Below are positions 16,434 through 34,782 of a stretch of 46,422 bases of DNA, in pieces (position 1 is the stretch's first letter; every line of letters starts with the position of its first letter). The notes under the pieces were generated by a model, which saw nothing but the letters and a program-made list of their open reading frames with translations, made no database searches and was not told the DNA's origin. The stretch is from an uncultured Clostridia bacterium (lineage in GTDB: Bacteria > Bacillota > Clostridia > Lachnospirales > CAG-274), in contig CALWRD010000120.1 of assembly GCA_944383875.1 (NCBI GenBank), positions 1 to 46,422 on the forward strand. Direction: 5' to 3'. The position numbers and the translations under genes were made by a program.

Positions 16434-17123
16434 ATGAAAAAATTACCTAAGGAAATATATATACTGGGCGGATTTGCCGTCCTTCTCTGCCTGATTATAG
16501 TTGTTATATCTTTCTCGGGCGGAGGTGATGCACAAAGTAATAATTCAGCTGATGCACAACAGCAGGTCACCAATGCGGTTGAGGTTACTACCGAGCCTAC
16601 AGCCGCCGATGTTGAGGCAATAGCCTTGCCTGATAAATCTGAATTTGCCCAGATACTTGGATTTGAGCCTGCACAGGTTGACAGACTTACGGATCTTTAT
16701 GTGCTCAGATATGTATTTACTACAGATACAGGTGTGGAGTATTACTATCAGCAACATCTGGCAGCTAACGGTCAAAGGCTTATTCTTAAGATTGATAAGA
16801 TGAGCGAAGATGAGTACAATGCTTCTCTGCCTGCCGAGTCTGTTGCTCAGCACGTGGAAATAGACGGAAGAGATGCAGTCTTTGCCGATCGTTGGCTTTA
16901 TAAGGTACCCGAGGGAGAAGACCCGGGAGAAGGGGTACTGGCAATGGAGAAAGAAGGCACAGCTGTAATTTCAGTGGGCGGCATATACAAAGAGGCGTCA
17001 CAGCTTCAGACCCTTGATTGGTACGAAAACGGATGCAGATATGAGTTGTATTGTGATTTTATGAACGTGACAATTGAAGAAATGACAGAGTTTGCTGAAT
17101 ATTATTTTGAAAATGCACAGTAA
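16434..17123 (+). CDS. Membrane-anchored hypothetical protein (single N-terminal TM; C-terminal part resembles DUF4367)
   Basis: 229 aa; the N-terminus MKKLPKEIYILGGFAVLLCLIIVVISF is a signal-anchor. The C-terminal LDWYENGCRYELYCDF...IEEMTEFAEYYF recalls DUF4367 from memory. It has its own terminator. Confidence 0.65.
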   Translation: MKKLPKEIYILGGFAVLLCLIIVVISFSGGGDAQSNNSADAQQQVTNAVEVTTEPTAADVEAIALPDKSEFAQILGFEPAQVDRLTDLYVLRYVFTTDTGVEYYYQQHLAANGQRLILKIDKMSEDEYNASLPAESVAQHVEIDGRDAVFADRWLYKVPEGEDPGEGVLAMEKEGTAVISVGGIYKEASQLQTLDWYENGCRYELYCDFMNVTIEEMTEFAEYYFENAQ

Positions 17124-17468: not shown

Positions 17469-19358
17469 ATGAAGAACCCCATTGTAAGTAAAATGGTTCT
17501 TCCTCAGTGTGTTACCGATATTTTAAATGCGGTGCCTGAGGTTATTGTACCTGAAAGCAGAGAGCACCTTTTTGATCTCTCATACGGCGGAAAGGGCAAT
17601 AAGACCTTTGATGTAAACTTTGACGTAAACGGAAAATCTGTTCGTGAAGCTTATGTAACAAGATGTAAGAACGGTATGGTTATCAATTTTGATGACAAGG
17701 CAATGCGCCGCCGTGACCCTAACTCTATGGTAATTGCGGATCATCTTCCTACAGATAAACCAACCTATGAGGAAAGATTCGGTATACCTTTTGACAGTGT
17801 ACGTGAGGAAACTTTTGAATGGCTTAAGGAGAGAGAATCACTTATAGCATTACCTTTCTATGCAGGTAACGAGGATCTTAAGCTCGGTTATCCATGTATT
17901 GCCATAGTACCTACCAACGCTGCATGCTTTGCGGCCATGCTTGCGGATATGCAGTGCTTTATTCCGGCAGATAAGGTACCTAACTTCTTTAAGCCAAAGG
18001 GAATTATATATGTGGCTCCACCTTTCCGTCACACTCATTTTGAAGGAAAGCAGGTTGTAGTACATAACCGTATGTACGATATGCAGGAAGTATTCAGCTA
18101 CAACCTCTATCCCGGTCCATCAGCCAAGAAGGGTGTTTACAGTATCCTTCTTAATATAGGCGAGCAGGAAAAGTGGGTAACTCTCCATGCATCAACAGTA
18201 AAGATCATTACTCCATATGAGTTGGAGCTTACTATTATGCACGAGGGTGCTTCAGGCGGCGGTAAGTCTGAGATGACTGAGCCTTTCCACAGAGAGCCTG
18301 ACGGTCGTCTGCTTCTTGCCACAAACACAATTACAGGTGAAAAGACTCTTGTAAATATTGCGGATACATCCGAGCTTCATCCTGTAACCGATGATATGGC
18401 ACTTGCTCATCCAAGTCTTCAGAACGACAGCAAGAAGCTTGTTGTTGCTGATGCTGAAAACGGTTGGTTCCTTAGGGTAAACCATATTGAGCATTACGGT
18501 ACAGAGCCTGAAACAGAGGCAGCTACCATCCATCCAAAGCAGCCTCTTATCTTCCTTAATATGCAGGCAGTTCCCGATTCTACCTGCCTCATTTGGGAGC
18601 ATATAGAGGATGAACCGGGTGTACCTTGCCCTAATCCAAGACTTATTATGTCAAGAAGACTTAAGAATAATATCGTAAGCGGTGCTGTTGAGGTTGATGT
18701 AAGAAGTTTCGGTGTTCGTACTCCACCTACAACCAAGGATAACCCTAACTACGGTATTATAGGTCTTTTCCATGTACTTCCACCTGCACTTGCATGGCTT
18801 TGGAGACTGGTTGCACCACGTGGTTTTGCTAATCCTTCTATTATAGACAACTCAGGCAATGCCCTTAAGAGTGAAGGCGTTGGTTCTTACTGGCCATTTG
18901 CTACAGGTAAGAAGGTTGATCAGGCTAATCTGCTCCTTGACCAGATCTTAAGCACACCTTCTACAAGATACATCCTTATACCTAACCAGTACATCGGCTG
19001 CTATAAGGTAGGTTTTGCAGGTCAGTGGGCTACAAGAGAGTACCTTTCAAGAAGGGGCGGCGCTAAGTTCAGACGTGAAATGCTTGATGAGGCAAGATGC
19101 CCAATCCTTGGTTACGCTCTTAAGTCTATGAAGATTGACGGAAACGACGTACCTAAGGGTCTTTTACAGGTAAATGAGCAGGAGAGAGTAGGCAACGAAG
19201 GTTACGATGCAGGCGCTAAAATCCTTACTGATTTCTTTAAGGAGCAGCTTGTTCAGTTCGATACTTCTTCGCTTGAGCCTCTTGGTCATCAGATTATTCA
19301 GGCTTGCCTTGACGATGCTTCTGTTCAGGATTACTACGATCTCATTCCTAAGCTTTGA
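17469..19358 (+). CDS. Large uncharacterized protein with an HprK/PEPCK-style P-loop (probably the DUF4914 family)
   Basis: 629 aa with a strong AAGGAGG RBS and a central MHEGASGGGKSEMTEP P-loop. Monocistronic, between its own promoter and the liv promoter. The family name is from memory only. Confidence 0.8.
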   Translation: MKNPIVSKMVLPQCVTDILNAVPEVIVPESREHLFDLSYGGKGNKTFDVNFDVNGKSVREAYVTRCKNGMVINFDDKAMRRRDPNSMVIADHLPTDKPTYEERFGIPFDSVREETFEWLKERESLIALPFYAGNEDLKLGYPCIAIVPTNAACFAAMLADMQCFIPADKVPNFFKPKGIIYVAPPFRHTHFEGKQVVVHNRMYDMQEVFSYNLYPGPSAKKGVYSILLNIGEQEKWVTLHASTVKIITPYELELTIMHEGASGGGKSEMTEPFHREPDGRLLLATNTITGEKTLVNIADTSELHPVTDDMALAHPSLQNDSKKLVVADAENGWFLRVNHIEHYGTEPETEAATIHPKQPLIFLNMQAVPDSTCLIWEHIEDEPGVPCPNPRLIMSRRLKNNIVSGAVEVDVRSFGVRTPPTTKDNPNYGIIGLFHVLPPALAWLWRLVAPRGFANPSIIDNSGNALKSEGVGSYWPFATGKKVDQANLLLDQILSTPSTRYILIPNQYIGCYKVGFAGQWATREYLSRRGGAKFRREMLDEARCPILGYALKSMKIDGNDVPKGLLQVNEQERVGNEGYDAGAKILTDFFKEQLVQFDTSSLEPLGHQIIQACLDDASVQDYYDLIPKL

Positions 19359-19506: not shown

Positions 19507-19552
19507 AAGGCGTTAGGATTAAATGAATATCTTAACGCCTTTAATTATTTAA
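19507..19552 (+). promoter_or_regulatory. Leader hairpin plus 9-codon Ile/Leu-rich mini-ORF upstream of the BCAA transporter
   Basis: AAGGCGTTA (19507-15) / TAACGCCTT (19533-41), followed by TAATTATTT. ATG 19523 to TAA 19552 encodes MNILTPLII, and its stop overlaps a second ATG (TAATG). Confidence 0.4.
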
Positions 19553-19578
19553 TGAATATCTTAAGGAGGGGTTTCTTG

Positions 19579-20748
19579 ATGAAAAAGAAATTGATGGCGT
19601 TGACCTTAGTATCCGCAATGGCGTTTTCGGCTGTACTTTCCGGCTGTGGCGGTTCGGGGGAAGAGTCGGCAGATGCGGGCAATACGATTAAAATAGGTGT
19701 ATTTGAGCCTATAACAGGCAGTATGGCTGCCGGCGGAGCTATACAGATTGAGGGTATTGAGCTTGCTCATTCCGAAAGACCTACCGTTACAATAGGCGGA
19801 GAGGAATATAATGTAGAACTTGTGCAGGCTGATAACAAGTCAGATAAGGTTGAGGCTGCTAATGCCGTTACTAAGCTGATTGAGGAAGATGAGGTAGCAA
19901 TTATCCTTGGTTCTTATTCTTCAACTCCTTCTCTCGGTGCATATGACGTTGTAAAAAACGGTGATGTTGCGGCTATCGGTCTCAGTTGTACAAATCCTGC
20001 CGTAACAGCGGGCAATGACAACTATTTCAGAATTTGCTTTACAGACCCTTATCAGGGACAGGTAATGGCTAACTATGCTTACAATACTCTTGGTGCAAGA
20101 ACCGCTGCTGTTACAACAGAGCAGGGCAATGACTATTCCGTAGGTCTTGCACAGTACTTTAAGGAGTCATTTGAAGAGCTTGGCGGTACAGTATACGAGG
20201 CGGCTTATCAGACAGGCGATCAGGACTTTAACGCACAGATAACAAGTCTTAATGCAAACAATCCCGATGTGTTCTTTGTACCCGGTAACTTCACTGAGGC
20301 AGCTATGTTTATCAAGCAGGCAAGACAGGCTGGCGTAACAGCTACCATGCTTGGCGGTGATACATATGAGGTTCAGGAATTTATTGACGTGTGCGGTGCA
20401 CAGGAGGCAGAGGGCGTTCAGTTCTCAGCTCTCTTTGACCCAGAAGCTGATCTTACTCCTCTTACACAGGAGTTCGTTCAGAACTACAGGGATAACAATG
20501 ACGGACAGGATCCTGCAAGTGAAACGGCACTTGGTTACGATGGTTATAATATAGCTTGTGATGCTATTGAGGCAGCTAACTCAACAGATCCCGTAGCTAT
20601 CAGGGATGCACTTGCTGCTATCGACTTTGTAGGTGTTACAGGTGAGGTTCAGTTCGATGAAAACGGTGATCCTACAAAGGAGGCTGTTATCAAGGAAGTA
20701 CAGGACGGAAAATTTGTACTGAAGGATCAGGCAGGTATTGCTGAGTGA
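19579..20748 (+). CDS. Branched-chain amino acid ABC transporter substrate-binding lipoprotein (LivJ/LivK family)
   Basis: ATG 19579 lies 9 nt after AGGAGG. MKKKLMALTLVSAMAFSAVLSGCGG is a signal peptide with a lipobox. The body has a type I periplasmic-binding fold. The tracked ORF start at 19552 is a likely over-extension. Confidence 0.88.
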   Translation: MKKKLMALTLVSAMAFSAVLSGCGGSGEESADAGNTIKIGVFEPITGSMAAGGAIQIEGIELAHSERPTVTIGGEEYNVELVQADNKSDKVEAANAVTKLIEEDEVAIILGSYSSTPSLGAYDVVKNGDVAAIGLSCTNPAVTAGNDNYFRICFTDPYQGQVMANYAYNTLGARTAAVTTEQGNDYSVGLAQYFKESFEELGGTVYEAAYQTGDQDFNAQITSLNANNPDVFFVPGNFTEAAMFIKQARQAGVTATMLGGDTYEVQEFIDVCGAQEAEGVQFSALFDPEADLTPLTQEFVQNYRDNNDGQDPASETALGYDGYNIACDAIEAANSTDPVAIRDALAAIDFVGVTGEVQFDENGDPTKEAVIKEVQDGKFVLKDQAGIAE

Positions 20749-20784
20749 TCCTTAAAGTGAATTATTAAGGCTAACAGCGGCCGC

Positions 20785-20813
20785 AAGGGGGATGTTTTTT
20801 ACATTCCCCCTTT
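20785..20813 (+). promoter_or_regulatory. Intercistronic hairpin after the binding-protein gene
   Basis: AAGGGGGATGT-TTTT-ACATTCCCCCTT (one bulge), 37 nt after the stop. This placement is typical for setting an excess of binding protein over permease. Confidence 0.45.
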
Positions 20814-20910
20814 GTGCCGTTTGACATATGCCTGTATCTCAAAGCATTGACGGCAGCCTGCTTTGAAATACATACATCTGTATGTTAAATTATTTGAAAG
20901 GGTGATAAAA

Positions 20911-21828
20911 ATGAGTTGGTTTGTATTGCCTACGGGTGATGTGCTGGCGCAGCAGCTTTGCAACGGTCTGCTGCTGGGCAGTCTGTTTGCTCTTGTGGCG
21001 GTGGGCTATACCATGGTTTACGGTATATTAAGGCTCATCAACTTTGCTCATTGCGATATATTTATGATGGCTATGTACATAGCGTTTTTTACCGTTGCCG
21101 ACGATTACAGAATGTGGGGCTTGAGCTTTATATTGGTTATTGTTGCTACAGCAGCTTTGGGTGTTTTACTTGAAAAGTCGGCTTATGCTCCTCTCAGGCG
21201 GCAGAATGCTCCTAAGCTTTCAATGCTTATTTCGGCCATAGGTGCCTCCTATTTTCTGGAAAACCTTGCAACGGTTCTATTTACGGGAAGACCTAAGACT
21301 TTCCCACAGATTCCTTTTTTTGTGGATATGATGCAGATAGGTCCGGTAAGACTTCAAAGACTTGCCATTATTGTACCTATTGTAACCATAGTACTTATGG
21401 TGGTATTGGTTTTGCTTATCAATAAGACTAAGAGCGGTATGGCTATGAGGGCAGTATCCAAGGATCTGGAAACAGCCAAGCTTATGGGTATCAATGTTAA
21501 TGCTACCATATCCTTTACCTTTGCAATAGGTTCCGCTATTGCGGCTGTGGGTGCTATCCTTTGGGGACTTAAGTATCCTCAGATTTCCCCTCTTGTAGGT
21601 GTTATGCCGGGACTTAAGTGCTTTATTGCAGCTGTTATCGGTGGTATAGGCAATGTCAAGGGTGCTGTTATCGGCGGTGTGCTGCTTGGTTTTATTGAGG
21701 TTATGGCAGTTACCTTCTGCCCATCCATATCGGCATACAAGGATATATTCTCATTTGTATTGCTTATAGTTATACTTCTGTTCAGACCTAACGGTATTAT
21801 CGGCGAAAAGCTTGCCGAGAAAGTCTAA
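20911..21828 (+). CDS. livH: Branched-chain amino acid ABC transporter permease (LivH family)
   Basis: About 305 aa, polytopic. MSWFVLPTGDVLAQQLCNGLLLGSLFALVAVGYTMVYG matches the LivH N-terminus. ATG 20911 is preferred to the tracked TTG 20863. Confidence 0.88.
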   Translation: MSWFVLPTGDVLAQQLCNGLLLGSLFALVAVGYTMVYGILRLINFAHCDIFMMAMYIAFFTVADDYRMWGLSFILVIVATAALGVLLEKSAYAPLRRQNAPKLSMLISAIGASYFLENLATVLFTGRPKTFPQIPFFVDMMQIGPVRLQRLAIIVPIVTIVLMVVLVLLINKTKSGMAMRAVSKDLETAKLMGINVNATISFTFAIGSAIAAVGAILWGLKYPQISPLVGVMPGLKCFIAAVIGGIGNVKGAVIGGVLLGFIEVMAVTFCPSISAYKDIFSFVLLIVILLFRPNGIIGEKLAEKV

Positions 21829-21842
21829 GGAGGTGCGGTAGT

Positions 21843-22928
21843 ATGACTAAGAGTGAACATAGAAAAAGAAATACAATACTTAATCTTATTATGCTTGCGG
21901 CGCTTATCGGTTTCCTTGTCTGGGGACAGGAGGGTGACGGCTTTGGTACATACAACAGACGTATATTTATGACATGCTGTACCTATGCTATCTGCGCACT
22001 TTCCATGAATATGGTAAACGGCTTTACGGGACTTTTCTCACTGGGTCAGCCGGGTTTTATGGCTATCGGTGCCTATGTTGTTGCTATCCTTACGGTAAGT
22101 CCTGAGGATAAAAGGGCAATCTATATGATAGAGCCTATTTCTGATTTTATGGCAAACCTTCAGGCTCCGTTTTTCCTTGCACTTATTATAGGCGGTCTGA
22201 TTGCAGCCTTGTTTGCCTTTTTGATAGGATTCCCTGTGCTCAGGCTTAAGGGAGATTATCTTGCCATAGCTACACTTGGATTTTCCGAGATAATAAGAAT
22301 ATGTATTACCAATATGCAGGGAATTACAAACGGTCCTACAGGTATTAACCGCATCCCAAATGATTATATGAATATGTATGTAGTCTGTGGAATACTTGCC
22401 CTTATTGTGGCGTTTATGATTGCTTTTATGAAGACCAGCTACGGCAGGGCTATGCTTGCTATCCGTGAGGACGAAGTGGCTGCCCAGGCTATGGGTATCA
22501 ATCTGTTTAAGAATAAAATGCTTGCATTTGTGCTGAGCGGCTTTTTTGCAGGTGTAGGCGGCGGTTTGCTTGCTTCCCTTGTAGGCGCTATAGGTCCCGA
22601 CCAGTTTAAGTTTACCGTAGCTTATGATATTTTGCTGATGGTGGTACTGGGTGGTCAGGGTTCCGTAACGGGTACCGTTGTGGGTGCTTTCATAGTCAGG
22701 ATCGCCCTTGAAAAGCTCCGTTTCCTTGATGAGCCTATTGACTTCGGCTTCTGGGAATATCCCGGTATCGGCGGTATGCGTATGGTTGTATTCTCAGCCT
22801 TGCTTATGCTTGTTATCATTCTTTGGCGTCGTGGTATTTTCGGCAACAAGGAATTCAGCTGGGACAGCTTTTTCGCCTTTTTCCAAAGGCTCTTTGCCAG
22901 ATTTAAGAAAAAGGGGGTTGCTGAATAA
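21843..22928 (+). CDS. livM: Branched-chain amino acid ABC transporter permease (LivM family)
   Basis: 361 aa, polytopic. NGFTGLFSLGQPGFMAIGAY and LRLKGDYLAIATLGFSEI motifs. AAGGAGG RBS. Confidence 0.88.
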   Translation: MTKSEHRKRNTILNLIMLAALIGFLVWGQEGDGFGTYNRRIFMTCCTYAICALSMNMVNGFTGLFSLGQPGFMAIGAYVVAILTVSPEDKRAIYMIEPISDFMANLQAPFFLALIIGGLIAALFAFLIGFPVLRLKGDYLAIATLGFSEIIRICITNMQGITNGPTGINRIPNDYMNMYVVCGILALIVAFMIAFMKTSYGRAMLAIREDEVAAQAMGINLFKNKMLAFVLSGFFAGVGGGLLASLVGAIGPDQFKFTVAYDILLMVVLGGQGSVTGTVVGAFIVRIALEKLRFLDEPIDFGFWEYPGIGGMRMVVFSALLMLVIILWRRGIFGNKEFSWDSFFAFFQRLFARFKKKGVAE

Positions 22929-23692
22929 TGGCTTTGCTTGAAACTAAAGACGCTACGATACGTTTCGGCGGACTTGTAGCTGTCAATCTTCTTAATATAG
23001 AGGTAAACGAGGGTGAAATAGTAGCTATTATCGGACCTAACGGTGCAGGTAAAACTACAGCGTTTAACCTTATTACAGGTGTGTATGAGCCAACCGAGGG
23101 CGAGATTCTGCTGAACGGTAAACGTATCAACGGCAAGCGCCCGGATGAAATAGCTAAGCTGGGTATTGCACGTACCTTCCAGAATATAAGGCTTTTTAAG
23201 GACTTGACCGTACTTGAAAATGTGCTTATAGCAACTCATCTGAATATAAAGACAGGTCTTTTCTCCTCCGTGCTTAAGCTGCCGAATGCACGTAAAGAGG
23301 AAAAGGAAATGATAGACTTTGCCCTTTCTCTGTTAAGGGAAACGGGTCTTGAACAGTATAAGGATGACATTGCTTCAAGCCTGCCTTACGGTCTGCAAAG
23401 GCGCCTTGAAATAGCCCGTGCACTGGCTACCAAGCCACATATCCTCCTGCTTGATGAGCCTGCTGCCGGTATGAATCCTAAGGAAAGTGAGGATCTTACT
23501 TCTTTTATTAAGGAAATAAGGGATAAGTTTAACCTTACTATACTGCTGATTGAGCATCATATGCAGCTTGTTATGGATATTTCCGACAGAATATATGTGC
23601 TGGAATACGGCATTACAATCGCTAAGGGTGTACCCGCCGAGATCCAGTCCAACCCTGTAGTTATCAAAGCATATCTTGGAGAGGGGGATTAA
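22928..23692 (+). CDS. livG: Branched-chain amino acid ABC transporter ATP-binding protein (LivG family)
   Basis: 254 aa; Walker A GPNGAGKTT, LPYGLQRRLEIARAL, LLLDEPAAGM. The start overlaps the livM stop. Confidence 0.9.
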   Translation: MALLETKDATIRFGGLVAVNLLNIEVNEGEIVAIIGPNGAGKTTAFNLITGVYEPTEGEILLNGKRINGKRPDEIAKLGIARTFQNIRLFKDLTVLENVLIATHLNIKTGLFSSVLKLPNARKEEKEMIDFALSLLRETGLEQYKDDIASSLPYGLQRRLEIARALATKPHILLLDEPAAGMNPKESEDLTSFIKEIRDKFNLTILLIEHHMQLVMDISDRIYVLEYGITIAKGVPAEIQSNPVVIKAYLGEGD

Positions 23693-24409
23693 TTGGTGCT
23701 TGAAATAAAAAACTTAAAGGTTAAGTACGGCGGTATAGTTGCACTTAACGGCATAAATATGACTATCCCCGATGGCAAAATCGTTACCCTTGTAGGTGCA
23801 AACGGTGCAGGCAAATCAACTACCCTGCGCTCAATTACCAAGCTGGTTACTCCTGCAGAGGGAAGTATCACCTATGACGGCAAGGAACTTACCACAATGT
23901 CCACACAGGATATAGTTAAGCTGGGCATTACCCTTGTTCCCGAAGGTCGTCACGTATTTGCGGATATGACGGTTGAAGAAAATCTTAAAATCGGTGCTTA
24001 CCTGCGTAAAGATAAGCAGAATTTAAGGCAGGAAATAGAGTTTATCCATGAAATGTTCCCTATACTTAAAAAGAGGTCGGGACAGCTCAGCGGTACACTC
24101 TCCGGTGGTGAGCAGCAGATGCTTGCTGTAGGTCGTGCCCTTATGAGCAAGCCTAAGCTGCTTATGATGGATGAGCCTAGTCTTGGTCTTGCACCCCTTG
24201 TTATTAAGGATATTTTTGAAATAATTAAAAAGGTTAATAAGGAACAGGGCATGACTATCCTCCTTATTGAGCAGAACGCTAATGCGGCTCTTAAGATTGC
24301 CGATTACGGTTATGTTATGGAAACAGGTACTATTGGACTTGAGGGCACCGGCGAGGAGCTGCTTGCCAATGAAAGGGTCAAGGAGCTTTATCTGGGTAAA
24401 AGTAAATAA
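23693..24409 (+). CDS. livF: Branched-chain amino acid ABC transporter ATP-binding protein (LivF family)
   Basis: 238 aa; GANGAGKST, LSGGEQQMLAVGRAL, LMMDEPSLGLAP. Start is TTG 23693 or GTG 23696. Confidence 0.9.
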   Translation: MVLEIKNLKVKYGGIVALNGINMTIPDGKIVTLVGANGAGKSTTLRSITKLVTPAEGSITYDGKELTTMSTQDIVKLGITLVPEGRHVFADMTVEENLKIGAYLRKDKQNLRQEIEFIHEMFPILKKRSGQLSGTLSGGEQQMLAVGRALMSKPKLLMMDEPSLGLAPLVIKDIFEIIKKVNKEQGMTILLIEQNANAALKIADYGYVMETGTIGLEGTGEELLANERVKELYLGKSK

Positions 24410-24465: not shown

Positions 24466-25038
24466 TTATTTATCTGTTTCAAAGGTATATTCACAGTGAT
24501 TTTGTATATCAAAGGTTGTGAAATATTTTTCTTCCATGGGGATCCATTTCGTTTGAAAAGCATTTAACGCTGTCTTGCCGTTACGCTTTTCTATACGCCT
24601 TAGTTGTTCTTCGGGACTAACTGACAGAAAAATATGTATGTCATAATATTTCCACAGCTCGGGATGACAACTGTATGAGCCTTCAACAACAGTAATATTT
24701 TTAGGGTTAATGTAAATCGGCTCTGCAAAGCTAAGGGTATGGCAGTCATAGGGACGGTAGGAGAAGGATTTGCCTTCCTTTAAAGGTATCAGTACTTCTT
24801 CCTTAAACCGTTCATAGTCAACATTTCCCCCTGCTTCCTTTAATCGTTCTTCTGTACGCTGTTCTTTTCTCAGAAAAAAATGATCCATATGTATTATATT
24901 GCAGTTAAGTTCCTTTTGCAGCATTGCAGCGATGGTGGTTTTTCCCGAGGCGGCTCTGCCATCTATTGCAATGAGCAGGGGATAATCTGTTATTTTATTT
25001 ATTGCAGGCAGCAGTGTACTGAGAATATCTTCCGTCAT
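24466..25038 (-). CDS. P-loop kinase of the uridine kinase / nicotinamide riboside kinase-like family
   Basis: 190 aa; LIAIDGRAASGKTTIAAMLQKELNCNIIHMDHFF (Walker A followed by a DxFF-type motif). The start overlaps the stop of the upstream S-component gene (ATGA). Confidence 0.8.
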   Translation of the reverse strand: MTEDILSTLLPAINKITDYPLLIAIDGRAASGKTTIAAMLQKELNCNIIHMDHFFLRKEQRTEERLKEAGGNVDYERFKEEVLIPLKEGKSFSYRPYDCHTLSFAEPIYINPKNITVVEGSYSCHPELWKYYDIHIFLSVSPEEQLRRIEKRNGKTALNAFQTKWIPMEEKYFTTFDIQNHCEYTFETDK

Positions 25039-25607
25039 TGTTTTTTCTCCGTATTAATTACGGCAGTATGCTGTTTTTTGAACTTTACAAGACCGGTTCT
25101 GTTAAGTTCAAGCATAATCACCGGGATAAGTATGAGCTGAAGTATTATACCGGGAACAGCATTTAAAAATGCCCCTGCCATAAACATCTGCCAAGTAAAT
25201 CCGCTTCCGCTTAAACCAAGTAATATTATTTGTACTATGCCCCAAACCGCACGTCCTGCCGCCATAGCGGCAATCATAGAACGATAGAGGGAAATAATAC
25301 ACTGCCAGCGTGAGCGGTTGTATAAAAAACCGATAATAAATCCATAGGTCATCAGTTCAAATGACATTGATATACCTGTAGGAAAAATTATTGGCATACC
25401 GAAGATGGAATATCTCAAAAGGGGTAGTATAAAGCCTACGATTGCACCGTACTGCCAGCCGCATATTAAGCCGCAAAGGAATACGGGTATATGCATTGGC
25501 AGCAGCATATTGCCTATCTGTGGTATTTGCCCCGTAAACAATGGCAGTACCAGACCGATGGCAAGGAACATAGCTGCCAAAGTCATATTTTTAACGTTTT
25601 TACTCAT
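25035..25607 (-). CDS. ECF transporter S component (substrate-specific membrane protein, substrate unknown)
   Basis: 190 aa with about six hydrophobic helices. MTLAAMFLAIGLVLPLFTG...LLPMHIPVFLCGLICGWQYGAIVGFILPLL is typical of the ECF_trnsprt-type S component. No ecfA/ecfT genes are adjacent. Confidence 0.75.
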   Translation of the reverse strand: MSKNVKNMTLAAMFLAIGLVLPLFTGQIPQIGNMLLPMHIPVFLCGLICGWQYGAIVGFILPLLRYSIFGMPIIFPTGISMSFELMTYGFIIGFLYNRSRWQCIISLYRSMIAAMAAGRAVWGIVQIILLGLSGSGFTWQMFMAGAFLNAVPGIILQLILIPVIMLELNRTGLVKFKKQHTAVINTEKKQ

Positions 25608-25619
25608 ATTATCCTCTCC

Positions 25620-26678
25620 TTATTCATCAACACTGACAAGGTTATAGGTACGGCTTCCGAGTCCGATTTGTTCGGCGTGTTCCAAAGTGTGAAGACCGTT
25701 GCGGGATTCGATTCTTTCAACAAGGGAAGCCCCATCCCCATCCTGTTGTTCATATACAAGGTCGATACAAGCCTGATCCAATGCAACAGGGTCCGTTGAA
25801 GCCAGTATACCTATGTCGTGCATATCAGGTTCGGCAGGATTGCCGTCACAGTCACAGTCCACCGACAGACGGTTCATTACATTGACATATGCTATGTTTT
25901 CACCGTTATTTAAGTAATCGGATACGGACTTGCCTGCCTCAGCCATGGACTCAAGAAATGGATCCTGCTCGCCGCCCCATGGGTCGGTGCTGCTCTCCCC
26001 TGCGCTGTGGATAAGGCACTTACCCTCTGTTGAGCCGAGTCCGATGGAAATATTCTTTATAGCGCCGCCGAAGCCTGCCATTGCATGACCTTTAAAGTGG
26101 GAAAGCACTAAGTAGGAGTCATAATCGGCAAAGTGAGCACCCACAAGGTTTTCTTTAAGCTGAGTGCCGCCTTCAACGGGCAGGCTCATTGAACCATCTT
26201 CATCTAAGATTCGGAAGTCGGCTATTGCCGTAAATCCGTGGTCTTCCGCTACCTGATAGTGCATGGCTGTTTCCGCACGGGAACCGCCGTAGGCTGTGTT
26301 GCACTCCACTATGGTGCCGTCAACGGACTGTACCAGATCTTTAATAAGGTCGGGATCAAGGTAATTGCTGGCAGGAGGTTCTCCCGTGGAGAGCTTAACC
26401 GCAACATTTCCCTCGGGTGTCCAGTTGAGTGCACCATATACTGCCATTAATCCTTCGGGACTTATGTCGGTGGTCATATATACAACGGGAGAAGCGGTAT
26501 CTGCCGCATCTTTATTTTCCGTACTCTCTTGTGAAGAGGTGGTGTTTTCGGTTGTTTCCGTTGTACTTTCGGTAGTTGTGGTGGTTTCGGGAATCAGAAT
26601 ATCCCCTCCACAGCCCGATAAAAGCGTGGATGTAACTGCAAGTGATGTAACAAGTGAAATGATCCTGTTATTAATCAT
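25620..26678 (-). CDS. DUF362-like lipoprotein with Thr/Ser/Glu-rich linker
   Basis: 352 aa; signal peptide plus lipobox (LLSGCGG), then the linker TTTTTESTTETTENTTSSQEST. SHFKGHAMAGFGGAIKNISIG and GILASTDPVALDQACIDLV resemble DUF362 motifs (from memory). AAAGGAGG RBS. Confidence 0.75.
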   Translation of the reverse strand: MINNRIISLVTSLAVTSTLLSGCGGDILIPETTTTTESTTETTENTTSSQESTENKDAADTASPVVYMTTDISPEGLMAVYGALNWTPEGNVAVKLSTGEPPASNYLDPDLIKDLVQSVDGTIVECNTAYGGSRAETAMHYQVAEDHGFTAIADFRILDEDGSMSLPVEGGTQLKENLVGAHFADYDSYLVLSHFKGHAMAGFGGAIKNISIGLGSTEGKCLIHSAGESSTDPWGGEQDPFLESMAEAGKSVSDYLNNGENIAYVNVMNRLSVDCDCDGNPAEPDMHDIGILASTDPVALDQACIDLVYEQQDGDGASLVERIESRNGLHTLEHAEQIGLGSRTYNLVSVDE

Positions 26679-26856: not shown

Positions 26857-26934
26857 AGTGAAAAACGTGTCTTAGGTCAAGGCTTTATTTATTAATGTAA
26901 AGCAACTTTATTTTAGCTTGAAAGGATGATGCAT

Positions 26935-27423
26935 ATGTTCAGAAAAATGCGAAGGCATAAACAGGAGCTTTCAAAGGAAATGTGTGAGAAAATTTTGCTT
27001 AAGGGGACATCAGGGGTTCTGGCGGTTTTGGGTGATGATGATTATCCCTATGCGGTTCCTCTCAGCTATGTATATGAAGATGGTAAAATATTTTTCCACA
27101 GTGCAAGGTCGGGACATAAGATTGACGCCGTAAGGCGAAATGAAAAGGCTTCATTTTGTGTTATAGATCAGGATGAAATCGTACCGGAGGAGTATACCAC
27201 CTATTTCAGAAGTGTGATAGCTTTCGGTAAAATACGCATTATGGATGATGAAGATGAAAAGAGAAGTGCAATAGAAAGGCTTGCTCTTAAATATGCTCCC
27301 ATGGATAGTGCCGAAGGGCGTAAAAGGGCTGTTGATAAGGACTATAATGCCCTTTGTATGCTCTGCCTTGATGTAGAATATATGAGTGGGAAAGAGGCTA
27401 TTGAGCTGGTCAGGAAAAGATAA
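26935..27423 (+). CDS. Pyridoxamine 5'-phosphate oxidase family (NimA-like, FMN-binding split-barrel) protein
   Basis: MFRKMRRHKQELSKEMCEKILLKGTSGVLAVLGDDDYPYAVPLSYVYEDGKIFFHSARSGHK is the typical N-terminus of this family. ATG 26935 is preferred because the tracked ATG 26926 overlaps the AAAGGA RBS. Confidence 0.8.
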   Translation: MFRKMRRHKQELSKEMCEKILLKGTSGVLAVLGDDDYPYAVPLSYVYEDGKIFFHSARSGHKIDAVRRNEKASFCVIDQDEIVPEEYTTYFRSVIAFGKIRIMDDEDEKRSAIERLALKYAPMDSAEGRKRAVDKDYNALCMLCLDVEYMSGKEAIELVRKR

Positions 27424-29711: not shown

Positions 29712-29742
29712 TAAAAACGGCTGTCGTACTTGCGGCAGCCGT
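29712..29742 (-). terminator. Rho-independent terminator of the B12-regulated operon
   Basis: Minus strand: ACGGCTG-CCGCAAGTACGA-CAGCCGT followed by TTTTTAA, about 34 nt after the stop at 29776. Confidence 0.65.
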
Positions 29743-29775: not shown

Positions 29776-31392
29776 TTATTTCTTTTTCGTTCCCTGCGCA
29801 TAGGTAATAATAACAGCTAGCCTCTTTCTTGTCAAGTCTGTAAAGGCTGTTACAGGGTCAAATTTTTTCTGCATTGATGTGATTTGATCGTTATAACTGC
29901 TGTCGGAACTTTCTTTTGTATAGTCGGTAACATAATACAGCTGTATAATATCGCCATCGGAAAGCTTAATACTGCCCATACTTGCTTCTGGCTCCCTGCC
30001 GTTTATGCTGTATTTCCAGCCGCTGTTTACACCCATATCAAACTCGTACAGAAGATGGGAACTGTCCTCGCCGATAGCGGAAATATATATGCTTTCTTCA
30101 TCACCTGTGGCGGCATATGTCAGTCCTTGATTGTCAAGGGCAGCTTTCACTGCCGTCCATACGCTTGAGCCTGCGTATACGCTTACCGTGTCAGTAAAAT
30201 CAAAGGCGTAACAGGGTTCTTCCAGTGTTGATACGGTTACGCTTATGCTGATGCGCTTGGTGCTGCTTCCGCCTCCTCCGCCCGGACGATTTGAGACGGC
30301 TTCGGTGGTTGTTTCGGTTGAAGCGGCGGTTTCGGCGGTTGGCTTGGCAGAAGTTGTTTCGGTAATTGTTATTTGTGCCGAGGTACTGATTTCTGTTGTA
30401 CTTTCGGCAGTGCTTTCTTCGGCAGCGAAAGAGGTACTTTCGGTGGTACTTTCTATGGCAGCGGTTGTGCTTTCGGTAGAGGGAAGGTCAATGCTGCCTC
30501 CACCGAAACGGAATATATAAACTTTGTTTTCTCCGTTAAGCTGCCTTTTTACGGACACCATGGCTCTGAATGCCTGTTCCGTTGAAAGTGAATTGTGCCG
30601 TGTGTTTGTAAAGCCGAAGGTATAGTCCTCATTCATAAAGGTAAGCAAACCTTCAAGAGAATTTCCGGATTTGATAAAACGGCTGTCGGTGAATATGTCC
30701 ACACCTGCCCCACACAGGGCATTTATAGCAACCGATGTGGAATTGGAATTTTCGACTCCGTAGCGATTGCAGAATGCGCCGCTTTCTCCCTGCATTTGTG
30801 CAAGTGCCTCAATGCCTTTTTCCACGGCTTCGGTGCATTGCTCATATGGGGAAAGAGCCAATATTGCAAGGGAGGTGTTGTCCGTGTCGATTACCGCAGC
30901 TGCTCCAAAGCCTCCAAGTTCATTTTGAGAGGCGAGAATACCGTCAATGAGCTGCTGCCTTGCCAACGGACGGTCATAGCCGTAGGAATCCAGTGCAAGC
31001 AGACCGAATATAAGCTGATTAATTGACATACCATGTATATTTTCACAGATGTAGTCGACAAGCTCCTCATCCCTTATACCTACAGCACTTTTCATTATCA
31101 GTATACGCTCGGCATCGGTTACAAGGCGTATTTCATCATCAATGTTTTCAACATAGCTGCGCATTTCTTCACTTATACAGCCGTCTGCTGCCATATCCGG
31201 CACATACCAGTCACTTATTACTCCTTTTGCATATACTTCGCTTACAACTGCCTCAACTGCCGAAGCGGTTGTAGAAATATCGTGGGATGCTGCATATAAC
31301 ACGTCAGTACCTATACTTGCAAAGGAAAGACTGTTGCCGGAAATTAGTATTGCTGCCGCAAGCAGCAGGGAAATCCATCGCTTAAGCTGCAT
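29776..31392 (-). CDS. Secreted two-domain protein: prenyltransferase-like alpha/alpha-toroid repeats, Thr/Ser/Glu linker, C-terminal DUF4430 (transcobalamin-like) domain
   Basis: 538 aa. Signal peptide MQLKRWISLLLAAAILISGNSLSFA. QNELGGFG and QGESGAFC repeats. Linker STESTTAAIESTTESTS...GGGGGS. C-terminal SGWKYSINGREPEASMGSIKLSDGDIIQLYY. Overlaps the upstream gene by 11 nt. Confidence 0.8.
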   Translation of the reverse strand: MQLKRWISLLLAAAILISGNSLSFASIGTDVLYAASHDISTTASAVEAVVSEVYAKGVISDWYVPDMAADGCISEEMRSYVENIDDEIRLVTDAERILIMKSAVGIRDEELVDYICENIHGMSINQLIFGLLALDSYGYDRPLARQQLIDGILASQNELGGFGAAAVIDTDNTSLAILALSPYEQCTEAVEKGIEALAQMQGESGAFCNRYGVENSNSTSVAINALCGAGVDIFTDSRFIKSGNSLEGLLTFMNEDYTFGFTNTRHNSLSTEQAFRAMVSVKRQLNGENKVYIFRFGGGSIDLPSTESTTAAIESTTESTSFAAEESTAESTTEISTSAQITITETTSAKPTAETAASTETTTEAVSNRPGGGGGSSTKRISISVTVSTLEEPCYAFDFTDTVSVYAGSSVWTAVKAALDNQGLTYAATGDEESIYISAIGEDSSHLLYEFDMGVNSGWKYSINGREPEASMGSIKLSDGDIIQLYYVTDYTKESSDSSYNDQITSMQKKFDPVTAFTDLTRKRLAVIITYAQGTKKK

Positions 31393-32080
31393 TGTTAAGG
31401 GTCCTGTTCAATATCCATGCGGCATCATTGGCAGTGAGGATACCGCTTCTGTCGTAGTCAGACACATCAAGGTCAATGGTGATTGAGTCGGCAAAACGAG
31501 TGTACTGCAATACAGCTGCGGCATCGTCTGCGGTAACTTTCCCGTCACTGTTGCTGTCTCCTCTTAATACATCGGATGTCATATCACAGCTTATACGGCT
31601 GTCAGCCAAAGCACGCATAGCCTCGAAATCCACAGGATCATATATAACTGCGTCCCAGTTTTCATCAAAATCACTTACATATTCCCACAGTATAAACATA
31701 CCGTCATATACCGTATATTCATTTGCGGCGGTTATGAGGGTGTTATAGCTGTCTACATAGTACAACCAACCGCTGGATGGACCGGTAAGTCCGCTGCCCT
31801 GACCGAAAAGAGTTTCATAATAGCTCAGTCCGCTGCCGGATACTACACTGTCAGTATTGTTTTCTATGGCATAGGTCACGTCGGATACGGTTGTACCTGC
31901 CGGTACGGTCAGCCTGCTGCAATTATAGCTTGTTATGGGCTGTGTCTTGTCGGCGGTGTTCCCCCCTCTTGCCATAAAGTAGACGGTTACGGTATCACCT
32001 TCTGCCGCAAATATGCTTAAGGGGCTTATTGCAGCCAGCATAAATACACAAAGCAGAAGGGATAAAATTTTGTTCTTCAT
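31382..32080 (-). CDS. Secreted DUF4430 (transcobalamin-like) domain protein with C-terminal type I dockerin
   Basis: 232 aa. Signal peptide MKNKILSLLLCVFMLAAISPLSIFA. DUF4430-like SSGWLYYVDSYNTLITAANEYTVYDGMFILWEY. Dockerin duplicated Ca-binding loops GDSNSDGKVTADDAAAVL and DYDRSGILTANDAAWIL. AAAGGAG RBS. Confidence 0.8.
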   Translation of the reverse strand: MKNKILSLLLCVFMLAAISPLSIFAAEGDTVTVYFMARGGNTADKTQPITSYNCSRLTVPAGTTVSDVTYAIENNTDSVVSGSGLSYYETLFGQGSGLTGPSSGWLYYVDSYNTLITAANEYTVYDGMFILWEYVSDFDENWDAVIYDPVDFEAMRALADSRISCDMTSDVLRGDSNSDGKVTADDAAAVLQYTRFADSITIDLDVSDYDRSGILTANDAAWILNRTLNNAA

Positions 32081-32112: not shown

Positions 32113-32143
32113 CAAAAAAAATAGGCTATGCAAAGCAAAGCCC
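32113..32143 (-). terminator. Expression-platform terminator of the cobalamin riboswitch
   Basis: Minus strand: GGGCTTTGC-TTT-GCATAGCCT followed by ATTTTTTTT, 33 nt before the ATG at 32080. Confidence 0.6.
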
Positions 32144-32189
32144 ACTGCACCTACGGTGCCCTTGCCTTACTTCGGAAAACAAGTATTAA

Positions 32190-32300
32190 AAATACAACCT
32201 TAGGGTGCGTATCTGACTATTTATCACAGTGACCGGTTCGTACAGGATTTTCACCTGTTTCCGCTTATCGCACCATTACAGTGCTGACCTTAAGGCACGT
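32190..32300 (-). promoter_or_regulatory. Cobalamin (B12) riboswitch aptamer
   Basis: Minus-strand read: GTGCCTTAAGGTCAGCACTGTAATGGTGCGATAAGCGGAAACAGGTGAAAATCCTGTACGAACCGGTCACTGTGATAAATAGTCAGATACGCACCCTAAGGT. It contains GGAAAC-GGTGAAAATCC, CCGGTCACTGT and the B12-box-like AGTCAGATAC..GCACC, in the canonical order. The CCTTAAGG/CCCTAAGG P1 helix closes it. Confidence 0.8.
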
Positions 32301-32316
32301 ATTAAGTTATTCTATA

Positions 32317-32345
32317 ATGATAGCCTAAAACATTCCATCTGTCAA
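32317..32345 (-). promoter_or_regulatory. Sigma-A promoter driving the riboswitch operon
   Basis: Minus strand: TTGACA (32345-40), 17 nt, TATCAT (32322-17). Confidence 0.6.
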
Positions 32346-32371
32346 CCGGAATATTGCCTGTATTAATGTCA

Positions 32372-32396
32372 ATCTGCGGGTGCAGATATTTTTTTT
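32372..32396 (+). terminator. Orphan plus-strand terminator-like hairpin upstream of the relA promoter
   Basis: ATCTGC-GGGT-GCAGAT (32372-87) followed by ATTTTTTTTG. No plus-strand gene lies upstream for about 5 kb. Confidence 0.4.
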
Positions 32397-32448
32397 GCTC
32401 TGTTTATTCATTTGTCAGCTAATGTCTAACTTTTACTTGAAAATAGGG

Positions 32449-32477
32449 TTGCAATGCTTTATAATTATCAATATAAT
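32449..32477 (+). promoter_or_regulatory. Candidate sigma-A promoter of relA
   Basis: TTGCAA (32449-54), 17 nt, TATAAT (32472-77). Confidence 0.55.
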
Positions 32478-32547
32478 TCAATCTGTTTTATTGGTAAAAA
32501 CGAAGTTGTGGGAAAAGAGATTGAGCAATATAAAAGGAATGATTTTT

Positions 32548-34782
32548 ATGGAGCAATATGAGCAATTATATAACGAGCTTATTGAAAAAATTAATAAATA
32601 CCATCCTTCCAATGACCTGTCAATGGTAAGGCGTGCCTATGATCTGGCGAGAAAGGCACACGGCGATCAGGTGCGCAAGTCCGGGGAGCCATACATAATT
32701 CATCCCCTTTGTGTTGCCATTATCCTTGCTGAGCTGGAGCTGGATATTGAAAGTATAGTTGCGGGTATCCTGCACGATGTGGTTGAGGATACCGCCTACA
32801 GCCTTGAGGATATAGAGGAGATGTTTAATGCGGATGTTGCTCTGTTGGTTGACGGTGTTACCAAGTTGGAAAAAATCGAGTACGTTTCCAAAGAAGAACT
32901 CCAGGCGGAAAATTACCGCAAAATGTTCCTTTCCATGGCAAAGGATATAAGGGTTATACTTATTAAAATAGCTGACAGGCTGCACAATATGCGTACCCTT
33001 AAATATATGAAGCCGGAAAAGCAAAAGGAGAAGGCTCAGGAAACCTTGGACATTTATGCGCCCCTTGCTGACAGGCTTGGTATCTCTAAGATTAAGGTGG
33101 AACTTGAGGATCTTTCCCTGCGATATCTTGATCCGGAGGCTTACTATGATCTTGCGGATAAAATCAAACGCAAACAGTCAGAACGTGAGGAGTTTGTAGA
33201 AAAGATCGTATCGGAGATTAAGGCTAAGTGTACCGAGGCAGGAATCAAGTGCGAAGTTTACGGCAGACCAAAGCACTTTTTCAGTATATACAAAAAGATG
33301 CACAACAAAAATAAGACTATCGACCAGATATTTGACCTTTTTGCCGTGAGGATACTTGTTGATACGGTTACCGACTGTTATGCGGCGCTGGGCGTTGTAC
33401 ATGAAATATATAAGCCTATACCAAACCGTTTTAAGGACTATATTTCAATGCCCAAGGCTAATATGTATCAGTCTTTGCACAACACCCTTATAGGTCCCGA
33501 AGGTACTCCTTTTGAGGTACAGATAAGGACATGGGAGATGCACAGGACGGCTGAGTACGGTATTGCCGCACACTGGAAGTATAAAGAGGGCAGGACCGAT
33601 GCGGGACAGGATGCCGAGGAGGTCAAGCTTTCATGGCTCAGGCAGATCCTTGAGTGGCAGAGAGATATGTCCGATAACAAGGAATTTATGGATACAATCA
33701 AGACCGACCTTGATGTATTTAACGACAATGTTTATTGTTTCAGTCCAAACGGAAAGGTTATCAGCCTGCTTGACGGTTCAACCCCGGTTGACTTTGCCTA
33801 TGCCATTCATTCAGCTATAGGAAATACTATGATCGGTGCCCGTGTAAACGGCAGAATTGTCAACTTTGACTATAAGCTGCAAAACGGTGACCGTGTTGAA
33901 ATAATTACTTCGCAAAACTCCAGAGGACCAAGCATGGACTGGCTTAAGTTTGTTAAGACAAGCCAGGCAAGGAGTAAAATCAACCAGTGGTATAAAAAGG
34001 TCAATAAGGAAGAAAATATCGTAAAGGGCAGGGATTTGCTGGAAAAAGAGGCTAAAAAGAAGGGCTACGAAATAGGTGTCCTTACCACTCAGAATGGTAT
34101 AGCCTCGGTGCTTAACCGTTACAGTTTCAGGGACTGGGATTCCGTATGTGCTGCCGTGGGACACGGTGGACTTAAGGAAGGTCAGGTTATCAACCGCCTT
34201 ATTGAAATCTATCTTTTTGAACAAAAACGCAGTAAGACTGCCGACGAGCTTATCAAGGAACAGGAGGATAAGCTCAGGGCACAGATGGATGTTTCCTCTG
34301 TTCAGGGTAAGAGCCATAAAGGTAAGCAAGGTGTGTATGTACACGGCGTAGGAGATATTGACGTAAGGCTTTCCCGCTGCTGTTCGCCTGTACCCGGTGA
34401 TGAAATAGTAGGCTTTGTCACAAGAGGCAGGGGTGTATCTATCCATCGCACGGATTGCATCAACATCATTAACCTCAGTGAGGATGAGCGTGCAAGGCTC
34501 CTTGAGGCGGAGTGGATAACGGGAGATAATAAAAATACAGGTACCTATGAGGCGGAAATCCGTGTCTTTGCGCCTAACAGGAACGGTCTTACCATGGATA
34601 TACTTAAGGTGCTTATGGATGAGGGTGTACCTGTACAGAATGTCAGCGCAAGAGCTACCAAACACGATGATGCGGTGGTTGACCTTGCTATGATGATTAC
34701 CGGCAGGGAACAGCTCGAGATAGTATGTAAAAAAATACTTGCCGTTAAAGGTGTGGAGAATATAGAGAGAGTGACGACTTAA
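32548..34782 (+). CDS. relA: Bifunctional (p)ppGpp synthetase/hydrolase (RelA/SpoT homolog)
   Basis: 744 aa from ATG 32548 (MEQYEQLYNELIEKINKYHP). HD domain (HPLCVAIILAEL...HDVVEDT), synthetase domain (YKPIPNRFKDYISMPKANMYQSLHNT), TGS and ACT regions. The tracked ORF start at 32380 is a hydrophobic, AT-rich over-extension. Confidence 0.93.
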   Translation: MEQYEQLYNELIEKINKYHPSNDLSMVRRAYDLARKAHGDQVRKSGEPYIIHPLCVAIILAELELDIESIVAGILHDVVEDTAYSLEDIEEMFNADVALLVDGVTKLEKIEYVSKEELQAENYRKMFLSMAKDIRVILIKIADRLHNMRTLKYMKPEKQKEKAQETLDIYAPLADRLGISKIKVELEDLSLRYLDPEAYYDLADKIKRKQSEREEFVEKIVSEIKAKCTEAGIKCEVYGRPKHFFSIYKKMHNKNKTIDQIFDLFAVRILVDTVTDCYAALGVVHEIYKPIPNRFKDYISMPKANMYQSLHNTLIGPEGTPFEVQIRTWEMHRTAEYGIAAHWKYKEGRTDAGQDAEEVKLSWLRQILEWQRDMSDNKEFMDTIKTDLDVFNDNVYCFSPNGKVISLLDGSTPVDFAYAIHSAIGNTMIGARVNGRIVNFDYKLQNGDRVEIITSQNSRGPSMDWLKFVKTSQARSKINQWYKKVNKEENIVKGRDLLEKEAKKKGYEIGVLTTQNGIASVLNRYSFRDWDSVCAAVGHGGLKEGQVINRLIEIYLFEQKRSKTADELIKEQEDKLRAQMDVSSVQGKSHKGKQGVYVHGVGDIDVRLSRCCSPVPGDEIVGFVTRGRGVSIHRTDCINIINLSEDERARLLEAEWITGDNKNTGTYEAEIRVFAPNRNGLTMDILKVLMDEGVPVQNVSARATKHDDAVVDLAMMITGREQLEIVCKKILAVKGVENIERVTT

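Follow-up and report, generated by a model that had tools for sequence, protein, structure and literature searches.

In 2007, Burroughs, Balaji, Iyer and Aravind described secreted or surface proteins with transcobalamin-like SLBB domains, often present as two paralogues per operon, and predicted that surface complexes of such paralogous proteins scavenge vitamin B12 (Burroughs et al., 2007; PMC1796856). Here we analyzed a related locus in a 46,422-nucleotide (nt) stretch of DNA from an uncultured Clostridia bacterium (GTDB lineage Bacteria; Bacillota; Clostridia; Lachnospirales; CAG-274; NCBI GenBank assembly GCA_944383875.1, contig CALWRD010000120.1, positions 1 to 46,422), hereafter called the window. 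The locus consists of two overlapping minus-strand genes behind a cobalamin riboswitch, the first of which (gene 1) encodes a secreted protein in which a predicted transcobalamin-like domain is joined to a C-terminal dockerin. As in the group of Burroughs et al. (PMC1796856), we find a signal peptide, a transcobalamin-type beta-grasp domain, and a second SLBB paralogue in the operon (gene 2), one of the two paralogues being fused to a toroid. The locus differs from that group in its anchor, which is a dockerin in gene 1 and LPXTG, Ig, FIVAR, fasciclin, or beta-propeller modules in theirs (PMC1796856), in the absence of CbiO, CbiQ, and energy-coupling factor (ECF) transporter genes from the operon, and in a very divergent domain subtype with an extra C-terminal helix. 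Since such proteins were described in 2007 with other anchors, gene 1 is therefore a new anchoring variant of the known transcobalamin-like SLBB scavenging proteins and not a new kind of protein.

Three further systems invite comparison. The mammalian carriers transcobalamin, intrinsic factor, and haptocorrin have the beta fold that is the best structural match to the gene 1 domain, and the invariant SGW hairpin of gene 1 aligns with the FW hairpin in the beta domain of transcobalamin. Unlike these carriers, gene 1 lacks an alpha domain and combines one or two beta domains with a C-terminal dockerin; sequence identity is ~17-21%. Gene 2 reproduces the mammalian toroid and beta architecture, but with a linker of ~90 residues in place of a short one, and the receptor recognition of the mammalian proteins (CD320, cubilin) has no counterpart in this operon. 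The Lsa1839/Lsa1840 pair of L. sakei similarly places a separate secreted beta-only protein beside an alpha-containing one, with a proposed role in extracellular capture for an importer, but its genes belong to the operon of an ECF transporter, a dockerin is absent, no riboswitch has been reported, and the proposed ligand is haem (bioRxiv 10.1101/864751). The BtuG, BtuH, and BtuJ proteins of Bacteroides offer a functional analogy: exposed on the surface and controlled by riboswitches, they bind corrinoids with high affinity and supply a transporter, several of them acting as a relay. They differ from gene 1 in having unrelated folds (BtuG is a beta-propeller), in being lipid-anchored in the Gram-negative outer membrane, and in being physically coupled to BtuB.

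The dockerin itself has precedents. Gene 1 resembles the non-carbohydrate dockerin proteins of rumen and gut Clostridia in carrying a C-terminal type-I-like dockerin on a secreted protein, and it differs from the surveyed rumen dockerin proteins in its putative cargo, a vitamin-binding-type domain, and in its riboswitch control; that survey mentions no vitamin or cobalamin cargo (PMC6487960). The original prediction, made from the sequence alone, had stressed that dockerins normally attach glycoside hydrolases. This premise overstates the surprise, because non-carbohydrate dockerin proteins are already well documented and make up 23.6% of the functionally annotated rumen dockerin proteins (PMC6487960). 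Full-text literature searches found no work that combines a dockerin with DUF4430, transcobalamin, or a cobalamin riboswitch; the titles and abstracts of the papers found on dockerins and vitamin B12 suggest no link between the two, and PMC6231298 treats them separately. Nor is a dockerin among the anchors given in PMC1796856.

A dockerin fusion gene under cobalamin riboswitch control

Gene 1 (31382..32080 (-)) starts with an ATG that is preceded at 9 nt by a ribosome-binding site (RBS), GGAG, read in the sequence, and encodes a secreted protein of 232 amino acids (aa). A signal peptide readable in the sequence (residues 1-25, 32006..32080 (-); MKNK, a hydrophobic core, and IFA/AE), for which type I cleavage is expected, is followed by an SLBB/DUF4430 domain (residues 27-165, 31586..32002 (-)) and a dockerin module (residues 174-226, 31403..31561 (-)). 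The fusion of signal peptide, DUF4430-like domain, and dockerin that the original prediction had read from this open reading frame (ORF) is thus real, as are its exact boundaries, and the fusion is conserved across the family of homologues described below. A lipoprotein anchor, which the residues LLLC (8-11) might suggest, was rejected, as Cys11 lies too early and is absent in the homologues P0005-P0008; in comparison with homologues, the gene 1 signal peptide contains no conserved lipobox.

The aptamer of a cobalamin riboswitch (32187..32307 (-); Rfam RF00174, 37.7 bits against a gathering score of 31.5, full model 1-189) lies in the correct orientation in the 5' leader of gene 1 and ends 107 nt before the ATG. 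In L001, L005, L006, L007, L008, L012, L014, and L015, Rfam places an aptamer ahead of the orthologous gene at the matching position. These eight are all of the related loci that were scanned and reach far enough upstream; in each of them the aptamer is above the Rfam threshold, and protein identity goes down to ~50%. The presence of this riboswitch before every family member examined ties expression specifically to the intracellular level of adenosyl- or methyl-cobalamin, and the B12 control that had been predicted for the operon is supported and is conserved across the family. Between the aptamer and gene 1, the minimum free energy fold of the leader contains a hairpin, also readable in the sequence, formed by GGGCUUUGC and GCAUAGCCU and followed by a run of eight U residues (32114..32143 (-)). 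Hairpin and U8 are probably a terminator-type expression platform, which would be off with B12 bound. The hairpin was missed by a simple terminator scan because its stem has a mismatch, and the fold of the leader has a z-score of only -1.9. At a distance of 10 nt upstream of the riboswitch, a consensus scan gave a sigma-70-like promoter (32317..32345 (-); TTGACA, 17 nt, TATCAT) with 11 out of 12 matches, a result that is a pattern match only.

A transcobalamin-like domain predicted in gene 1

We tested the identity of the middle domain of gene 1 with Pfam, profile searches, alignment, and structure prediction. Pfam DUF4430 matches 8 out of 11 family members at E<=0.1, the best match (E 1.3e-6) being found in homologues with two copies of the domain. 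A profile of 13 repeat units (A2), searched against one representative for each of 1.84 billion clusters, retrieved only 14 proteins at E<=1e-3, three of them from the family itself and 11 from outside it. When 10 of these 11 outside matches were scanned with Pfam, nine were unambiguous DUF4430 proteins (Pfam E 1e-15 to 1e-24), and the profile match falls on the DUF4430 region in the proteins for which coordinates were compared (P0013, P0014, and P0017). A joint alignment of the family with DUF4430 proteins (A4) revealed a common signature of SGW-Y-V and D-G-x-x-I-L-W-x-Y motifs, in which S77, G78, W79, Y81, and Y108 are invariant and I104, L105, and W106 nearly so.

An AlphaFold2 model of residues 27-165, based on this 21-sequence alignment, has a mean predicted local distance difference test score (pLDDT) of 90 and a predicted template modelling score (pTM) of 0.85, and shows a beta-grasp with the order strand-strand-helix-insert-strand-strand. 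This domain-only run replaced a first run on the full protein with 11 sequences (pLDDT 50), for which the Foldseek ranking already leaned toward transcobalamin with no significant match. For the domain model, each of the 17 best-ranked PDB entries in Foldseek is a transcobalamin, intrinsic factor, or haptocorrin (probability 1.00, E 4e-4 to 3e-3). Among them are 5no0, the isolated beta domain of human transcobalamin (target TM-score 0.65), and 5np4, the same isolated domain with cyanocobalamin bound; the next match is the solved R. gnavus DUF4430 protein 3u7z. At the sequence level, a hidden Markov model (HMM) of the alignment reaches 5no0 across the full domain with an E-value of 0.026. A comparison by hhalign of the domain profile with the DUF4430 domain of gene 2, taken as a single sequence, was uninformative (probability 5.7%). 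The family-specific C-terminal helix of the gene 1 domain (DPVDFEAMRALADS) is absent from canonical DUF4430 members.

Together, the reciprocal profile homology, the common motifs, and the confident model place the middle domain of gene 1 in the transcobalamin-like SLBB clade, as a divergent member. Given its fold and the riboswitch, we infer that it binds cobalamin or another corrinoid, as the isolated human beta domain does in 5np4. In distant relatives, the same domain is found on other surface anchors, including lipobox signal peptides, SLH repeats, and giant Ig-repeat proteins. Its nearest canonical DUF4430 relatives (P0014, P0015, P0016, and P0019) are lipoproteins of ~135 aa with a lipobox signal peptide and a single beta domain, and amount to a minimal form of the same design, tethered to the membrane.

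A conserved dockerin module

The dockerin of gene 1 scores 25.3 bits against the Pfam model Dockerin_1 (PF00404; cut-off 22.9) over residues 174-226, and Pfam recognizes a dockerin in 10 out of 11 family members, with a best E-value of 1.5e-9. The module consists of two EF-hand-like calcium loops, each followed by a helix (TAxDAA). Both 12-residue loops can be read directly in the sequence, the first as D175-S-N-S-D-G-K-V-T-A-D-D186 and the second as D208-Y-D-R-S-G-I-L-T-A-N-D219, and helices at residues 184-195 and 217-230 appear in the first, low-confidence model. In an alignment of eight family members (A3), the loop residues are invariant, as are 19 of the 67 columns overall. When the profile built from this alignment was compared with the PDB, it matched 17 chains, all of them cohesin-binding dockerins, the best being the dockerin of C. 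thermocellum CelS (E 5e-7). A search with the dockerin profile for other cargo returned seven small dockerin-only proteins and no enzymes with a similar dockerin.

One ORF of the window, 16434..17123 (+), was checked as a possible cohesin and gave only a faint DUF4367 match (E 0.1). Its 229-aa product has an N-terminal membrane anchor and an extracellular domain, and is otherwise without a Pfam family.

Gene 2 encodes a second secreted protein with a toroid

Gene 2 (29776..31392 (-)) has an RBS-like AGGA 9 nt 5' of its start, read in the sequence, and encodes a secreted protein of 538 aa with a signal peptide, an alpha/alpha-toroid, a linker, a DUF4430 domain, and a C-terminal tail. It overlaps gene 1 by 11 nt (31382..31392 (-), ATGCAGCTTAA), so that the gene 1 stop lies over the gene 2 start. 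The overlap with the gene for a second binder, already pointed out in the original prediction, is kept in L001, L005, L006, L007, L008-L012, L014, and L015, and is 8 nt long in L016.

The toroid repeats (residues ~120-290, 30523..31035 (-)) give weak matches to Pfam SQHop_cyclase_C and Prenyltrans, and a profile of gene 2 orthologues matches squalene-cyclase C domains and GGTase-beta (E 1.4e-3 to 8e-3). The linker (residues ~297-385, 30238..30504 (-)), a Thr/Glu/Ser-rich low-complexity segment of about 90 residues that ends in GGGGG, separates the toroid from the beta domain and varies in length among orthologues. The DUF4430 domain itself (residues 408-488, 29929..30171 (-)) is a clear match to PF14478 (42.3 bits against a cut-off of 23.8, E 1.1e-10). 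Judged by its sequence, gene 2 appears to have a transcobalamin-like toroid and beta architecture, a likeness for which orthology is not demonstrable. After the DUF4430 domain follows a conserved C-terminal tail (residues ~508-538, 29779..29870 (-); KFDP...DLTRKRLAVIITYAQ..K), which does not have the length to cross a membrane and does not match an LPXTG signal; it could serve in sorting or in an interaction. No recognizable anchor was seen in the gene 2 protein sequence. Downstream of gene 2, a short hairpin (GGCTG...CAGCC) followed by T5 (29713..29740 (-)), read from the sequence and not called by the terminator scan, is a weak candidate for the end of the operon.

A rare family and a one-domain deletion allele

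The family is very small: with either a single sequence or a profile as the query, we found 10 clusters among 5.8 billion proteins. A set of 185,579 species-representative genomes yielded one locus, in an uncultured Eubacteriales metagenome-assembled genome (MAG), and a scan of a metagenome contig collection found no family locus. In every locus that was fetched (L001, L005-L012, and L014-L016), down to ~50% identity, the unit is conserved as a whole in the order riboswitch, dockerin gene, and overlapping toroid-DUF4430 gene, usually with murA on the 3' side of the gene pair.

The usual form of the gene 1 protein has 355-383 aa, with two tandem beta domains followed by the dockerin. A DNA alignment with the orthologue of L007 (L007 3388..4512, 374 aa) showed that gene 1 of the window equals this gene minus an in-frame 426 nt, with ~96% DNA identity on both sides of a junction at 31704..31713 (-) that carries 9 nt of microhomology (GGTATATGA). 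In the hybrid domain left by the deletion, ~40 residues from the end of repeat 2 follow directly on the first 99 residues of repeat 1, and this domain is predicted to fold well (AlphaFold2 pLDDT 90). The original prediction was thus right that this gene 1 has a single DUF4430 domain, but it missed that this state is a derived deletion of a two-domain protein. We also considered that the single domain might reflect the collapse of repeats during assembly. This was rejected on the grounds that the two repeats are only 70% identical at the DNA level, with a longest exact match of 26-30 nt, that the junction has a microhomology of just 9 nt, and that the exact 232-aa protein recurs in at least three independent samples, along with several near-identical 232-aa variants. 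Most conspecific strains keep two domains (374 aa), and the one-domain form is a minority allele.

Proposed mechanism and alternative explanations

With moderate confidence, we propose that the locus is a two-gene extracellular corrinoid capture operon that is off with B12, and that the gene 1 protein is tethered through its dockerin to a cohesin-bearing surface protein. At low intracellular cobalamin levels, transcription would be allowed to read through the riboswitch, and expression of the operon would yield two translationally coupled secreted proteins. Gene 1 would supply one or two beta-grasp domains of the type with which transcobalamin, intrinsic factor, and haptocorrin build the lower half of their B12 pocket, and gene 2 would supply a full, anchorless transcobalamin-like binder with its alpha-toroid and beta domain on a long flexible linker. 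The dockerin would most likely fasten the beta domain(s) of gene 1, in a calcium-dependent manner, to a cohesin-bearing protein of the surface. The captured corrinoid might then be held beside the envelope and handed to a membrane importer whose genes lie elsewhere, with the full binder of gene 2 perhaps acting as an intermediate or a partner in this transfer. Within this model, extracellular binding of a B12-related compound is much more secure than the part that involves a cohesin: the attachment of the gene 1 dockerin to a cohesin scaffold like that of a cellulosome or amylosome, which the original prediction had proposed, would be plausible, and both the tethering and the hand-over to a transporter are steps that we infer.

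A number of observations weigh against this proposal. On the side of the ligand, the gene 1 protein alone stays below the Pfam cut-off for DUF4430 (PF14478; 15.9 against 23.8 bits, E 0.018), and the identity of its domain was therefore tested in the four other ways described above; the Foldseek E-values are modest, and the alignment behind the good model took in canonical DUF4430 sequences. Our literature search found no bacterial DUF4430 protein with measured B12 binding, and the operon contains no B12 transporter, unlike the ECF-linked loci of Burroughs et al. On the side of the scaffold, no cohesin is encoded in the 46-kb window or within ~10 kb of the operon in the related loci with genes listed (about 10), and there is no second dockerin protein in the window or in the related loci. 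Dockerin-like modules are reportedly also present in organisms without cohesins, as Peer et al. are said to have described in 2009.

These last points, together with the recovery of only small dockerin-only proteins and no enzymes by the dockerin profile, are what would be expected of an orphan dockerin, in which case gene 1 would still encode a B12-regulated corrinoid binder and its dockerin would engage no cohesin scaffold. It might instead be a calcium-stabilized module with some other target, such as a polymer of the cell wall, a different protein, or the module itself; alternatively, the protein might be released as a soluble "corrinophore". We consider this explanation rather unlikely, although it is the strongest of the alternatives. 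Both calcium loops and their helices are strictly conserved, as expected under selection for a specific partner, and every PDB match of the dockerin profile is a dockerin that binds cohesin. Moreover, scaffoldin genes are normally unlinked to the genes for enzymes and other cargo, so the absence of a cohesin nearby says little.

An explanation that we judge distinctly less probable assigns gene 1 the role of an adaptor in a split transcobalamin, in which its beta domain(s) would pair B12-dependently with the alpha-toroid of gene 2 and so recruit loaded gene 2 protein to the surface. The lack of a recognizable anchor in gene 2 and the length of its linker between toroid and beta domain fit such a role, as does the constant overlap of the two genes, which are so probably made in fixed proportion. 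The fragments of intrinsic factor are said, in work by Fedosov et al., to assemble only on cobalamin. The L. sakei pair likewise consists of separate secreted alpha-like and beta-like proteins, for which a heterodimer has been proposed (bioRxiv 10.1101/864751). Against this, gene 2 already has a beta domain of its own. In an equally improbable elaboration, which might be called a "corrinosome", the dockerin-anchored beta domains would complete the pocket of the anchorless gene 2 toroid in trans, only with B12, on a cohesin surface protein. If this were true, a freely diffusing loaded binder would be reeled back to the cell, and the number of beta domains per anchor (two, or one) would set the capacity. 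We give very little credence to the explanation that the gene 1 domain binds a ligand other than a complete cobamide, such as haem or another tetrapyrrole, or has a role without a ligand, such as adhesion. The transcobalamin-like pair of L. sakei has been proposed to serve haem uptake (bioRxiv 10.1101/864751), 3u7z was deposited as a "putative metal binding protein", and SLBB domains bind diverse soluble ligands (PMC1796856), but every family member examined lies behind a cobalamin riboswitch.

Members of gut communities compete for B12, and its capture at the cell surface has been well studied in Bacteroides (BtuG, BtuH, and BtuJ), with almost nothing available for Gram-positive Clostridia beyond the prediction of 2007. 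The locus described here is a compact example, certified by its riboswitch, of the predicted capture domain joined to a dockerin, in a family that is very rare and comes from uncultured organisms. Should the dockerin of gene 1 bind a cohesin, the reach of cohesin-dockerin assemblies would widen from the degradation of polymers to the scavenging of micronutrients, and the short B12-binding-type module of gene 1 would come already equipped with an attachment tag that lends itself to engineering. Capacity can be compared directly between the natural alleles with one and with two domains.

Genomic neighborhood

The window has a GC content of 43.6%. The rest of it holds housekeeping genes, with a ribosomal protein cluster, secY, adk, rpoA, a Liv-type ABC transporter, murA, relA, dtd, hisS, aspS, and nrdD. 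On the far side of the riboswitch lies the divergent relA/spoT ORF (32380..34782 (+)), which has a mechanically assigned GTG start and 800 aa. Given that orthologues have 744 aa (L008), translation probably begins at the ATG at 32548 (MEQYEQ...), which would leave a divergent intergenic region of ~200 bp in common with the promoter of the riboswitch. Most relatives carry three genes between relA and the riboswitch, encoding a PBP_like_2 binding protein, a type I phosphodiesterase-family protein, and a LysR regulator (compare L005 6272..9773 and L008 3342..6825). In the window (32308..32548) and in L001, relA is directly adjacent, and the difference is a strain-level gain or loss beside the operon.

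About 5 kb downstream of the operon, a cluster on the minus strand (24466..26678 (-)) encodes a DUF362 protein (352 aa), an ECF-transporter S-component (190 aa), and a nucleoside-kinase-like protein (190 aa). The S-component (25035..25607) and the kinase were considered as the cognate importer. This was not supported, as the cluster has no riboswitch, the folT-family match is weak, and the cluster is absent in L005, which does have the operon; because it lacks a riboswitch and is absent from L005, the cluster is probably unrelated to the B12 operon. Close to it, a gene at 26926..27423 (+) encodes a PNPOx-fold protein that closely resembles the NimA-F 5-nitroimidazole reductases (E 2e-60, 203 bits). 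This score is below the NCBIfam equivalog cut-off of 260, so a function in 5-nitroimidazole resistance is not established. Finally, a full-length DUF4914 member of 629 aa (17469..19358 (+), 1040 bits) adjoins the operon of the Liv-type branched-chain amino-acid ABC transporter (19552..24409).

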